Below are positions 363 to 18,478 of a DNA stretch of 18,478 bases, in pieces. The notes under the pieces are model-generated. The model made no database searches and was not told the DNA's origin. It was given only the letters and a program-made list of their open reading frames with translations. Every line of letters begins with the position of its first letter. The first letter of the stretch is position 1. A program made the position numbers and the translations under genes. This stretch comes from a virus (taxonomy: Duplodnaviria; Heunggongvirae; Uroviricota; Caudoviricetes), in the IMG/VR virus record IMGVR_UViG_2802429220_000018, positions 1-18,478 of that record; one strand, written 5' to 3'.

Positions 363-388
363 ACGATCGATACAATCGTATCGATCGT
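363..388. promoter_or_regulatory. Perfect 11-bp inverted repeat (acgatcgatac / gtatcgatcgt, 4-bp spacer) carrying two GATC Dam sites, about 75-100 bp upstream of com; candidate methylation-sensitive operator
   Basis: Read directly: arms 363-373 and 378-388 are exact reverse complements; GATC at 365-368 and 383-386, a third GATC at 458-461 abutting the com ATG. AT-rich TATA-like stretch at 345-362. In Mu, mom transcription is controlled by Dam methylation of GATC sites upstream of the promoter (OxyR binds the unmethylated sites). Confidence 0.4.
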
Positions 389-461: not shown

Positions 462-647
462 ATGGATGCTGTTCGTTGTAAAAACTGCAATAAATTGCTG
501 TTTAAAGGAAGTTTTAAGCATATAGAAATCAAATGCCCTCGTTGTAAACGTTACATTGTCATGTCGAGTGCCCGGGAGCATCCCACGGAGCTGTATTGTG
601 GGAAAAGAGAAGAAATCACGCATTCTTACAAAACCCTGCGTTATTGA
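462..647 (+). CDS. com: Com-like zinc-finger translational activator (Mu Com homologue), 61 aa
   Basis: ATG 462 with AGGTGG 5-6 nt upstream. Four-Cys zinc knuckle CKNC...CPRC (C6, C9, C25, C28). The string [16 protein letters not shown]...[11 protein letters not shown]...HPTE..CGKRE.ITHS matches my recollection of Mu Com closely. The 3' end overlaps the next gene as com overlaps mom in Mu. Confidence 0.75.
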
Positions 648-1314
648 ATATGAAGGCCGTATTGTCGGCTATGGTTCAAGGGAACTGCGCGTTGAAACCA
701 TATCCTGCTGGCTGGCCCGCACAATCATTCAGACAAAGCACTATTCCCGCCGTTTTGTGAATAACTCCTACCTGCATCTGGGGGTATTCAGCGGACGTGA
801 TCTGGTTGGCGTTCTCCAGTGGGGATATGCCCTTAATCCCAACTCAGGGCGTCGGGTCGTGCCAGGAACGGATAACCGGGGCTATATGGAACTGAACCGC
901 ATGTGGTTACACGACGACATGCCCCGCAACTCTGAATCACGGGCCATCAGCTACGCACTGAAAACCATCAGGTTACTGTATCCGTCAGTGGAGTGGGTTC
1001 AGTCCTTTGCAGACGAACGCTGCGGACGTGCAGGTGTTGTGTATCAGGCGTCGAATTTTGATTTTATTGGTAGCCACGAAAGCACGTTCTACGAACTGGA
1101 CGGCGAGTGGTATCACGAGATAACGATGAACGCGATTAAGCGTGGAGGACAACGAGGCGAGTATTTACGGGCTAATAAGGAGCGGGCGGTGGTACACAAA
1201 TTTAATCAGTATCGCTACATCAGATTCCTGAACAAGCGCGCAAGGAAGCGATTAAATACTAAGCTATTCAGGATTCAGCCATACCCAAAAACACGCCAGA
1301 TTAGTATCAAATAA
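598..1314 (+). CDS. mom: Mom-like DNA modification protein (Mu Mom family, acyltransferase-like adenine-modifying enzyme); start uncertain (GTG 598 preferred, TTG 556 is the longest ORF)
   Basis: The ORF overlaps the com 3' end in another frame, the Mu com-mom arrangement. The conserved core ...[24 protein letters not shown]...[26 protein letters not shown]... resembles Mu Mom as I recall it. GTG 598 has GGAG 7 nt upstream, and both lie in a potential stem (tcccac 581-586 / gtggga 598-603) that would sequester the start site. TAA at 1312-1314. Confidence 0.7.
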
Positions 1315-1326
1315 TTTTTCGTTGTG

Positions 1327-1375
1327 CCGTTTTGGGTGGTATCAAAAAAAATCCCAAACGGTATCAAATAATTTT
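1327..1375 (+). terminator. Imperfect hairpin (ccgttttggg ... cccaaacgg, 16-nt A-rich loop) followed by a T-rich tract, directly after the mom stop; possible terminator or junction structure
   Basis: Read directly: 1327-1336 pairs with 1353-1361 with one bulge, then tatcaaataatttt. Weak as an intrinsic terminator because of the long loop and short T run. Confidence 0.3.
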
Positions 1376-1386
1376 GCGCGCTTTAC

Positions 1387-16735: not shown

Positions 16736-18478
16736 TCATAATTTGTTAATGGCAATTTTAACTGTTCTGTTTAGATCGTATATGGCTCCAAATTTAAAGC
16801 TTTCTTTATAGGAAAGGCAAAAAATATCAAGTTTTTGACTAAGATAAATAAGTTTGTTTTTTTCATTAGTGGCGAATTGTTTTATGTTGCTGATTTGATA
16901 GTTGCTACGCAAGAAAGAACTAAATTGCTCAATATCATTAACTGCCCAATTCTTTAAAACGCATTTTGTTACAAATGATACACCTAGTACTTCAAGCGGC
17001 TTATAATTTCCGAATGGATCTAAAGTGGTTAATTGGTTAGCATTGAATGATGCCCAGCCATTCAATTCTAATTGCAACTTAATAGTGTTGAGTTCACGCA
17101 TTTTGATCGTGCTTTCATAACGGTAAAATGAAATTGAGTACAGCAATTTGCTATCTTCAAAACCACTATTTAAGCTATTTTTTCTATCAAGTGAGTATAG
17201 CTCAAAGCATTCTGCAACTTCATTGTCAGTGAATCCGTTCAGAATCGAAGTGACAAACTTTAGAGTTATAATTGGTGATTTTGGTAGGTATTTATGTGTG
17301 GTTAAATACTCATAATTCTGAAACGCTTTTATCCATTCATAGAAATTACAGTCAATCTTACGGCAAATTAAGTCGACAAGTGTATTTGAAAGTTCCTTTT
17401 CATTTATCTCATGTAATTCTGGACGTGCTGATATTGCAATTTCTCTCATAGTAAGCCGTTTTGCTTCATAAAACAAAACATCCAATATGTCATTTAATGA
17501 AGCTTGTCCGCTATAATACCTTTTAATCTCAGGTTTTATTTTGTAATTATTCAATGCTAACCATAGCACTCTCTCACTATCACTTGATTTCTCGGTGTTT
17601 AATAAAAAAGTTGGATCTTTGTCCTTGAGAAGATCCTCAAGAGAGTGATTATGCAAAAATAATAAAATGAAGAAAGAGCATATTGAGTTTAAAAGAATTG
17701 TTGATGGTATTCGCCAAGAAAGATGAGGATATGATTTAACGTATTCATATAATGGCGTAACTGTGTCCAAAATACGCATCAAAATACGGATGTTAACTAT
17801 GTTGTTATTTTTTACTATATCCTCAAAGAGAATTTTATCTTCCTGTGGGAATTGGGAAAGCTTTCCATTTATTATATCTATATCCAATATTTCCTCTGGA
17901 TGCGGATTATAATGAAGTGTTTCTGCAATGAGTTTTTCCTTGTGTTCTATTTTTAAACCAGACTCAGTTGATGTATTGGTAATAATAATAAAGTCTAAAT
18001 TTGAGTTCATCTCGGACATATAAAGAGAATGGCAATATGTCAAAATTTCACTAACTAATGATTTTTCGGATATTCTCTCTATATCATCCAATATAAAAAT
18101 ACCATCCAGTTTTGATAAAATGTTTTCTCTAACACTTGCACCAATAGAATTAAACATGCTGTTAATAATATTGGCACTTGCAGGTGAGCCGCTGGCAATG
18201 CTACCTATCCCTGATAGACTTTCGAGCCCGGATTTAAATGTTTGTATATCTTGCAGGTAGTAACAATCTATAATTTTAGCTTTGAAATCTGATAAGGATT
18301 TAATACCTAGTAAAGAAATATAATAGAAAATGTTTTTATCATAGTACTTGGGGAATTTTTTTCTGATAAAGTGAGTCTTTCCTGTGCCCCAGCTCCCATC
18401 AAGCAAAATCAGACCATCTCTTTTTTGTGAAAGTAGATGTATTATTTTTATAATAAGATTGCTGTTAGAGTATTTCAT
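16736..18478 (-). CDS. KAP-family P-loop NTPase (580 aa); AT-rich, likely horizontally acquired cargo; start codon at the last window base
   Basis: Minus-strand ORF with ATG at 18476-18478 and TGA at 16736-16738. Walker A in the KAP form GSWGTGKT (residues 28-35, LLDGSWGTGKTHF); Walker B-like IFILDDIER (compare the KAP DDLDR motif). The DNA is strongly AT-rich compared with the tail genes. Confidence 0.7.
   Translation of the reverse strand: MKYSNSNLIIKIIHLLSQKRDGLILLDGSWGTGKTHFIRKKFPKYYDKNIFYYISLLGIKSLSDFKAKIIDCYYLQDIQTFKSGLESLSGIGSIASGSPASANIINSMFNSIGASVRENILSKLDGIFILDDIERISEKSLVSEILTYCHSLYMSEMNSNLDFIIITNTSTESGLKIEHKEKLIAETLHYNPHPEEILDIDIINGKLSQFPQEDKILFEDIVKNNNIVNIRILMRILDTVTPLYEYVKSYPHLSWRIPSTILLNSICSFFILLFLHNHSLEDLLKDKDPTFLLNTEKSSDSERVLWLALNNYKIKPEIKRYYSGQASLNDILDVLFYEAKRLTMREIAISARPELHEINEKELSNTLVDLICRKIDCNFYEWIKAFQNYEYLTTHKYLPKSPIITLKFVTSILNGFTDNEVAECFELYSLDRKNSLNSGFEDSKLLYSISFYRYESTIKMRELNTIKLQLELNGWASFNANQLTTLDPFGNYKPLEVLGVSFVTKCVLKNWAVNDIEQFSSFLRSNYQISNIKQFATNEKNKLIYLSQKLDIFCLSYKESFKFGAIYDLNRTVKIAINKL

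Follow-up and report, generated by a model that had tools for sequence, protein, structure and literature searches.

The stem-loop at positions 581-603 very probably serves as translation inhibition structure (TIS) in a com-mom operon of the Mu type, a structure that the Com protein would open. The operon forms part of the right end of a Mu-like prophage. The element is already known: in the stretch of 18,478 nucleotides analysed here (the window), the TIS of phage Mu is re-identified in a close relative of Mu. The decisive support for the TIS came from comparison among related loci and from homology, not from thermodynamics. The family-level covariation of a neighbouring hairpin predicted to bind Com (H1) is a modest extension of earlier work. 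The features discussed below are collected in Table 1.

Table 1. Position and description of the features of the com-mom region (coordinates of the window).
Feature	Position	Strand	Description
Two CGATCG (Dam GATC) sites	365..386	+	Upstream of com; by alignment, two of the three GATC sites in the Mu mom promoter region appear to be their counterparts
com CDS	462..647	+	ORF of 61 aa with a four-Cys zinc ribbon; putative translational activator of mom
Putative Com-binding hairpin H1	568..581	+	Predicted pairs G568.U581, U569-A580, G570-C579, C571-G578; loop CCGGGA, 572-577
Translation inhibition structure (TIS)	581..603	+	6-bp stem UCCCAC/GUGGGA, 11-nt loop; arms identical to Mu
Second CC(N)3GAG motif (CC-ACG-GAG)	583..590	+	Motif scan; spans the TIS 5' arm and the Shine-Dalgarno sequence
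mom Shine-Dalgarno sequence GGAG	587..590	+	Within the loop of the TIS, 7 nt ahead of the GTG; homologous to the ribosome_binding_site of AF083977
mom GUG start codon	598..600	+	Pairs with C586, A585 and C584
mom CDS	598..1314	+	238 aa, GTG start; overlaps the com 3' end by about 50 nt (47-50 nt)
Right terminus of the Mu-like element (...TTTTGCGCGCTTTA)	1372..1385	+	End of Yersinia Muvirus homology; lambda-like gene U from 1386

The com-mom operon and its surroundings

The com product matched the Pfam family PF10122 (Zn_ribbon_Com) with 30.6 bits, for a cut-off of 22.9, and the mom product matched PF25680 (Mom, the adenine carbamoylmethylation enzyme family) over its full length with 255.9 bits. 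By BLASTP, Mom was 97% identical to Mu Mom. At the DNA level, the sequence from position 472 on was about 89% identical to com-mom of Mu, D108, SfMu and several Yersinia Muvirus phages; in an alignment with Mu, D108 and vB_YpM_5, the segment GAGCATCCCACGGAG....ATTGTGGGAAAAGAGAA was invariant save for four loop bases. The original prediction had spoken of a resemblance to the Mu TIS. This proved too cautious, as the element is the same one, with arms, Shine-Dalgarno sequence (SD) and GTG start identical and in register.

The closest known system is accordingly that of Mu, D108 and SfMu, whose com-mom control has been described elsewhere (Wulczyn and Kahmann 1991; Hattman et al. 1991; Hattman 1999; PMC6483171). 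Besides the TIS, the window shares with Mu the gene pair, the overlap of the two genes and the location of the operon at the right end of a Mu-like genome, and H1 has the same stem positions, C-G closing pair, 6-nt loop ending in GA and CC(N)3GAG motif. In contrast, the Com protein of the window is only 71% identical to that of Mu (BLASTP), the H1 loop reads CCGGGA instead of CUGCGA with an outer G.U pair where Mu has A-U, and the four variable bases of the TIS loop are CUGU instead of AAAC. Upstream of com, the window carries a DUF4376 gene where Mu carries gin. The promoter region is also diverged. When it was aligned with Mu Pmom, which has three Dam/OxyR GATC sites and a site for the C activator upstream of com, those at 365-368 and 383-386 aligned, suggesting that two of the three Mu sites were kept.

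From position 1386 on, the sequence was 100% identical to the 3' part of the lambda-like gene U found in many E. coli genomes; downstream of gene U come V, G/T, the tape measure gene, J, lom and tail-fibre genes. The right end of a Mu-like prophage occupies positions 1-1385 and abuts the interior of the lambda-like gene U. The simplest reading of this arrangement is that a lambdoid prophage was already resident and that the Mu-like prophage inserted into its gene U by transposition. The junction between the Mu-like end and gene U occurred in no complete E. coli genome of the collection searched; in E. coli 06-00048, a DUF4376-com-mom block follows Mu-like baseplate and tail-fibre genes. We also considered that com-mom might be a moron of the lambdoid prophage, and rejected this because homology to the Yersinia Muvirus phages ends at 1385, which is where the genomes of these phages end, and is followed by the interrupted gene U. 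In annotation, the com-mom locus should be assigned to the end of a Mu-like prophage and not to the adjacent lambdoid tail module.

The mom frame is open from position 526 and runs to 1314 on the + strand, giving 252 codons from TTG 556 and 238 from GTG 598. Up to the region of Mom homology, TTG 556, GTG 568 and GTG 598 are the only ATG, GTG or TTG codons in this frame, as originally listed. GTG 598, preceded by the GGAG at 587-590, had been put forward as the most plausible start, and this choice was supported by the Mu record (GenBank AF083977), in which the annotated mom ribosome binding site (GGAG) and GTG map exactly onto 587-590 and 598. It is further supported by the related loci L050 and L064, in which an in-frame stop is located 12 and 3 nt, respectively, upstream of the homologous GTG. 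Initiation at TTG 556 or GTG 568 would make the hairpin intragenic. Both codons are in frame, and the D108 record starts mom at an ATG homologous to GTG 568, an in-frame ATG that is also present in Mu. However, no SD-like sequence was found upstream of 556 or 568, whereas GGAG stands 7 nt before 598; given this and the closed frames of L050 and L064, the D108 start is probably an annotation choice and not evidence of a longer protein. The Mu record and PMC6483171 use the GUG, and the ATG of Mu and D108 is itself changed to GTG 568 in the window. An upstream start is therefore extremely unlikely, and mom should be annotated from GTG 598.

The original prediction held in addition that the structure explains why mom has no ATG start. 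This stood only in part. The GUG does pair with CAC 584-586, but ATG is common in distant com-mom operons with a masked start, and Mu has an in-frame ATG at the position of 568.

Folding of the mom start region

The repeat on which the prediction was based was present as described, TCCCAC (581-586) and GTGGGA (598-603) being complementary at six of six positions, with the SD among the 11 nt between the arms. RNAfold recovered the hairpin in every context tried (29, 51, 70 and 261 nt). It added two G.U pairs, 587.597 and 588.596, which reduce the loop to 7 nt and draw half of the SD into the stem; these two pairs were not conserved among relatives. The isolated hairpin was mildly more stable than expected by chance, with a folding energy of -9.3 kcal/mol (z = -2.26), and 6 of 200 shuffled sequences folded equally well. 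Contexts of 51 to 261 nt revealed no extra stability when compared with dinucleotide shuffles (z +0.5 to +0.9, not significant). The pair probability of the TIS stem ranged from 0.2 to 0.74 depending on the context. Once the context reached about 100 nt, the GUG was paired with a probability of at least 0.97. When the TIS stem was enforced, the energy remained within 0.6-1.3 kcal/mol of the minimum free energy, an alternative fold being better by that margin in some contexts. Thermodynamics alone is thus weak evidence for the TIS and could not establish it.

The hairpin was also considered as a rho-independent terminator. A scan of positions 300-1500 for intrinsic terminators did not report it, and it is followed by AAAAGAGAAG; on both grounds this possibility was rejected. 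An Rfam cmscan of the same interval (E up to 10) gave no family, the only match being a chance one to Xist_exon1 on the other strand, at 1043-1064.

H1 and sequence variation among Mu-type operons

A hairpin that had not been noticed in the original prediction, H1, lies directly 5' of the TIS. It reads GUGC[CCGGGA]GCAU, with the published CC(N)3GAG motif present as CC-CGG-GAG at 571-578. In Mu, Com binds a small hairpin that is proximal to the TIS, the 19-mer GAAUGCCUGCGAGCAUCCC, and its recognition motif is CC(N)2-3GAG, located in a 6-nt loop with a C-G closing pair (PMC6483171). According to PMC6483171, the stem of the Mu TIS hairpin contains the mom GUG, and the Com-binding hairpin lies beside it. 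Alignment showed that H1 is homologous to the Mu 19-mer. A covariance model of H1 (R1, described below) matched positions 564-585 with 24.9 bits and E = 8e-4, the only match below E = 3 in the 18.5-kb window, whose sequence is part of the training set. Nucleotide U581 is common to both hairpins, pairing with 568 in H1 and with 603 in the TIS. Relative to Mu, a single A to G change at 568 turned the outer H1 pair from A-U into G.U and, at the same time, the upstream ATG into GTG 568. The probability of H1 predicted by folding in the window was low, at most 0.34.

We then compared these two hairpins among related loci. A protein-pattern search of IMG/VR gave close relatives only (83-97%); in the 43 close loci, variation was confined to the N3 triplet of the H1 loop and to the TIS loop, and the stems were invariant save for one C586U change, which keeps a U.G pair. 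A metagenome scan with the pattern ATGCCNNNGAGCATN{22,48}AATCACG was too permissive because of its variable gap, and only one of the 120 loci returned encodes Mom (L229, 97% Mu-like). The informative variants came from more diverged loci, 80 of them taken from genome contigs and others from contigs encoding Mom homologues of 70-83% identity. The resulting set comprised 20 distinct Mu-type H1 plus TIS sequences.

The TIS stem was paired in all 20 sequences (100% of cells), which were chosen by the regular expression [CT]CCCA[CT]...GTGGG[AG], so that arm identity is partly selected. Four of the six pairs never vary and are uninformative either way. Pair 586-598 was CG in 19 sequences and UG in one. 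Pair 581-603 was UA in 14, CG in five and UG in one, with no C-A combination, a covariation with a Fisher p of about 4e-4 when phylogeny is ignored; the five C-G sequences belong to two com subtypes and may represent one or two evolutionary events. Column 581 pairs with 568 as well in all 20 sequences (AU 11, GC 5, GU 4), and positions 568, 581 and 603 change together. The TIS loop, on the other hand, is 11 to 20 nt long and also differs in sequence. An unguided RNAalifold consensus of the set consisted of H1 (3 bp) and the 6-bp TIS. A different hairpin, GUCUCCGA/UCGGAGAC, was present in L053 and L082, two com-bearing loci whose Mom is about 77% identical, and it buries the SD before an ATG.

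These data bear on the possibility that the arms are kept by coding constraint only, their complementarity being incidental. They do encode protein: the Com tail (His-Pro-Thr ... Cys-Gly) and the Mom N-terminus (Met-Gly), the 3' arm being coded in two frames and the 5' arm lying within com. The invariance of four stem pairs out of six would be expected under this explanation, and we estimate that about 0.1 inverted repeats of 6 bp would arise by chance in 50 nt, which is not rare. However, C584, a synonymous third position of a Pro codon, is invariant, whereas all 34 third codon positions of the zinc-ribbon part of com vary. The change of CAU to CAC at 581 is likewise synonymous in com, yet it always occurs together with A603G, which is synonymous in mom but comes at the expense of a Lys to Glu replacement in Com. 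In distant homologues, the Com tail shows no conservation otherwise, and in Mu the C-terminal tail is disordered and dispensable for RNA binding (PMC6483171). Finally, experiments on the identical Mu sequence support a function at the RNA level (PMC6483171). Coding constraint as the sole cause is thus very unlikely, and the TIS remains our reading of the repeat. For annotation, this means that the com 3' end has a second role as an RNA control region.

Start masking in distant operons and the proposed role of Com

Many mom loci of Gamma-, Alpha- and Deltaproteobacteria had a Com-like zinc-ribbon ORF whose 3' end overlaps the mom start. Most of the loci with com carried a hairpin of the form NNGC[C-N3-4-GA]GCNN 28-38 nt before the likely mom start, and it was absent from nearly all com-less mom loci. 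In an unbiased test of this hairpin, only GCC-N2-3-GAGC was held fixed. Upstream of mom, its two flanking pairs were canonical in 67 and 73 of 77 distinct instances, compared with 40% and 34% for GCC-N2-3-GAGC located elsewhere in the loci; the inner flanking pair was found as GC (25), CG (23), UA (10) and AU (6). In 31 ungapped H1 instances, which had been pre-selected for pairing, three of the four pairs change on both sides. Run against 253 kb of mom loci, the covariance model R1, built from these 31 instances, gave 44 matches with E up to 1. All except one (43/44) were on the + strand just 5' of mom, several of them at loci outside the training set.

The motif is not read in the same com frame everywhere. 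In Mu, it is read as AAU GCC UGC GAG CAU CCC (N A C E H P), and in phage PAN70 and many Alpha- and Deltaproteobacteria as GAA CGC CCG CGA GCG UCC (E R P R A S). That H1 is maintained in different com frames speaks for selection at the RNA level. In the literature searched and in Rfam, we found no account of how widespread the Com hairpin is and how it covaries, of its conservation across frames or of the three-way covariation of 568, 581 and 603.

Pairing that would mask the start was also seen beyond the Mu type. Pairing of the region from SD to start, relative to shuffled sequences, had a mean z of 1.18 in H1-bearing loci (n = 43) and of 0.21 in com-less mom loci (n = 22), a difference with a Mann-Whitney p of about 0.001 when relatedness is ignored; as in the other family-level statistics, related sequences were treated as independent. 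The distant com-mom operons (Pseudomonas phage PAN70 and prophages of Azospirillum, Desulfovibrio and Rhodopseudomonas; L048, L065-L128) resemble the window in having a com zinc-ribbon ORF that overlaps the mom start, a covarying H1 and a start region paired above shuffles. Unlike the window, they read the motif in a different com frame, often start mom with ATG, and have a masking helix of different sequence that is exclusive with H1. The 5' arm of this helix is usually formed by the loop and 3' arm of H1, making the two structures mutually exclusive, whereas the hairpins of the window and Mu share only nucleotide 581. When H1 was locked in silico in the distant loci, the paired fraction of the start region fell from 0.65 to 0.53 (Wilcoxon p = 3e-5).

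We lean towards the view that a Com hairpin combined with a start-masking helix constitutes a widespread, uncurated family of cis-regulatory RNAs, working in its distant members as a simple switch between two exclusive structures that a protein stabilises; in the Mu type the two structures are separated apart from the shared 581, so that Mu Com would have to open the TIS actively. The com-mom variants could seed an RNA family model. Com homologues have been noted outside mom operons too. According to PMC3299994, which cites Morgan et al. 2002, a Com homologue lies upstream of a DNA-modification gene in FluMu (HI1522.1/hin1523), Pnm1 and Pseudomonas B3, and FluMu-type prophages have putative Com-binding sites at the 5' end of the downstream gene. 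In these prophages the downstream gene encodes an adenine methyltransferase and not Mom, unlike in the window.

For the operon of the window, we propose the following course of events. On the com-mom mRNA, the mom GUG (598-600) would be paired with CAC 584-586 in the 6-bp helix, with the GGAG in or at the edge of the TIS loop. The 30S subunit would initiate poorly on this masked start, and basal transcripts would yield no toxic Mom. The com ORF is translated from an ATG and SD of its own, and its product would bind H1 through the zinc ribbon, immediately 5' of the TIS; bound Com would then open the TIS or hold it open, exposing the GUG and allowing Mom synthesis late in the lytic cycle. In PMC6483171, Com binding is proposed to destabilise the Mu TIS. 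By analogy, we infer that the window's own Com, 71% identical to that of Mu, acts likewise on the variant loop. There are few bacterial cases, com-mom among them, in which translation is activated by a dedicated protein that remodels a hairpin of the mRNA. A functional analogy with HIV Tat-TAR has been drawn (Hattman; PMC6483171), both involving a small basic or zinc-binding protein that activates expression through the loop or bulge of a short hairpin in its own mRNA leader. The analogy is not one of homology, and what Tat-TAR controls is transcription elongation, in a eukaryotic virus.

How Com opens the TIS was addressed by locking H1 in silico in eight Mu-type sequences, including that of the window. 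The TIS stayed closed, with the start codon paired at 0.96 compared with 0.98. A passive switch, in which formation of H1 excludes the TIS, was therefore rejected for the Mu type; it holds in the distant loci. The failure of locked H1 to open the Mu-type TIS implies an active contribution of Com, for instance through the 583-590 motif or through the disordered C-terminal tail. Such a role of the tail or of the second motif is plausible from this modelling. With tail-less Com, melting of the TIS was not seen (PMC6483171).

One form of active opening would be that the 5' arm and SD (CC-ACG-GAG) act as a second Com site, and that Com opens the TIS by capturing this strand and not from H1 alone, as the closed TIS after H1 locking might suggest. 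The motif at 583-590 is invariant in the Mu-type sequences with an 11-nt loop. In Mu, several CC(N)2-3GAG motifs are present in the region, some of them partly overlapping the TIS, and reduced SHAPE reactivity at more than one GA led to the suggestion that several Com sites may be used (PMC6483171). On the other hand, a protein that occupies the SD should be an obstacle to 30S binding, and five loci (L050, L250, L255, L256 and L257) keep the stem without a second motif in register. We consider this second site rather unlikely.

The extensive overlap of the two genes raises another possibility, namely that translational coupling is the main activator, instead of or besides Com, ribosomes in the 3' end of com melting the hairpin. 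The com frame runs about 50 nt (47-50 nt) beyond the mom start, across both arms, and overlap of the com 3' end with the mom start is found in most com-bearing loci. That a locked H1 leaves the Mu-type TIS closed in silico also fits this explanation. However, a covarying, position-specific Com hairpin would have no role under pure coupling, and Com reportedly acts when supplied in trans. Mu Com, moreover, binds mom mRNA specifically and is described as essential for its translation (PMC6483171, PMC3378877). Coupling as the main activator is thus unlikely, and we retain opening by Com; ribosomes that translate com may contribute as they pass through the hairpin.

The natural variants provide a ready-made mutant series for studying how the TIS is opened, comprising the loop triplet of H1, the covariation at 568, 581 and 603, and the exclusive hairpins of the distant loci. 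In the distant loci, a second, tandem copy of H1 was often present 22 nt upstream.

The right-hand boundary of the Mu-like sequence

The Mu-like sequence stops at ...TTTTGCGCGCTTTA, and this end coincides with the end of the homology to the Yersinia Muvirus phages. The very next base opens the 3' part of a gene U of the lambda type, behind which lies an entire tail module, also lambda-like. The arrangement looks like the outcome of a Mu-like prophage transposing into a lambdoid prophage, within its gene U. The junction was absent from all complete E. coli genomes of our collection. Beyond the tail-fibre genes of this lambda-like part, an ORF that weakly matches KAP-family P-loop NTPases continues past the right end of the window.

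Features in the window and at the compared mom loci
Feature	Position	Remark
DUF4376-domain gene, 3' part	1-339	Tail-fibre associated; com follows directly
Two CGATCG sites	GATC 365-368 and 383-386	Within 340-461
Palindrome GCCCT-C-AGGGC	420-430	com leader
Further GATC	458-461	Abuts the com ATG
Com hairpin loop triplet	572-574	Middle three loop bases
Region around the end of the Mu-like sequence	1372-1400	Junction 1385/1386
Gene U ORF	1402-1506
KAP-family-like ORF	16736-18478 (-)
Tandem Com hairpins in L048, L065, L073, L078, L084, L090, L098, L104, L110, L113, L118 and others	~60-90 nt before mom homology

Comparison of the com-mom region with Mu

In Mu, the position held here by the DUF4376-domain gene is occupied by the gin invertase. 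The mom promoter of Mu has three Dam/OxyR GATC sites; two of them align with those of the CGATCG pair upstream of com, whereas the third has been lost here and the remaining com leader, which contains a small palindrome, is unrelated to that of Mu. The two proteins differ in their identity to the Mu homologues, which reaches only 71% for Com as against 97% for Mom (window stretches contrasted: 462-597 and 598-1314), and the divergence of com from Mu ends right at the Com-binding hairpin. This contrast suggests either a recombination boundary or a com gene that evolves fast outside the part carrying the RNA element.

The loop triplet of this hairpin, both in the window and at the homologous place in the compared loci (L001-L260), also constitutes one com codon. 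It is hypervariable between otherwise near-identical phages (UGC, AAA, CGG, CAG, ACA, UUC, UCA, GUA, GUU and GCA), in agreement with the SELEX motif CC(N)2-3GAG, whose N positions are unconstrained.

Distant and com-less mom loci

Many distant com-mom operons carry the Com-hairpin motif in tandem, as two copies about 22 nt apart within com (for example GGGCC-ACGA-GCCC, then ACGCC-CGCGA-GCGU). A different, 8-bp helix burying the mom Shine-Dalgarno sequence, GUCUCCGA/UCGGAGAC, precedes an ATG start in the Symbiopectobacterium and Pantoea persica loci (L053, L082; ~1165-1200). Beside several enterobacterial mom genes com is absent altogether (loci examined: L051, L054, L055, L251, L252), and GATC-rich inverted repeats are found instead just upstream of some of them (L054, L055, L251).
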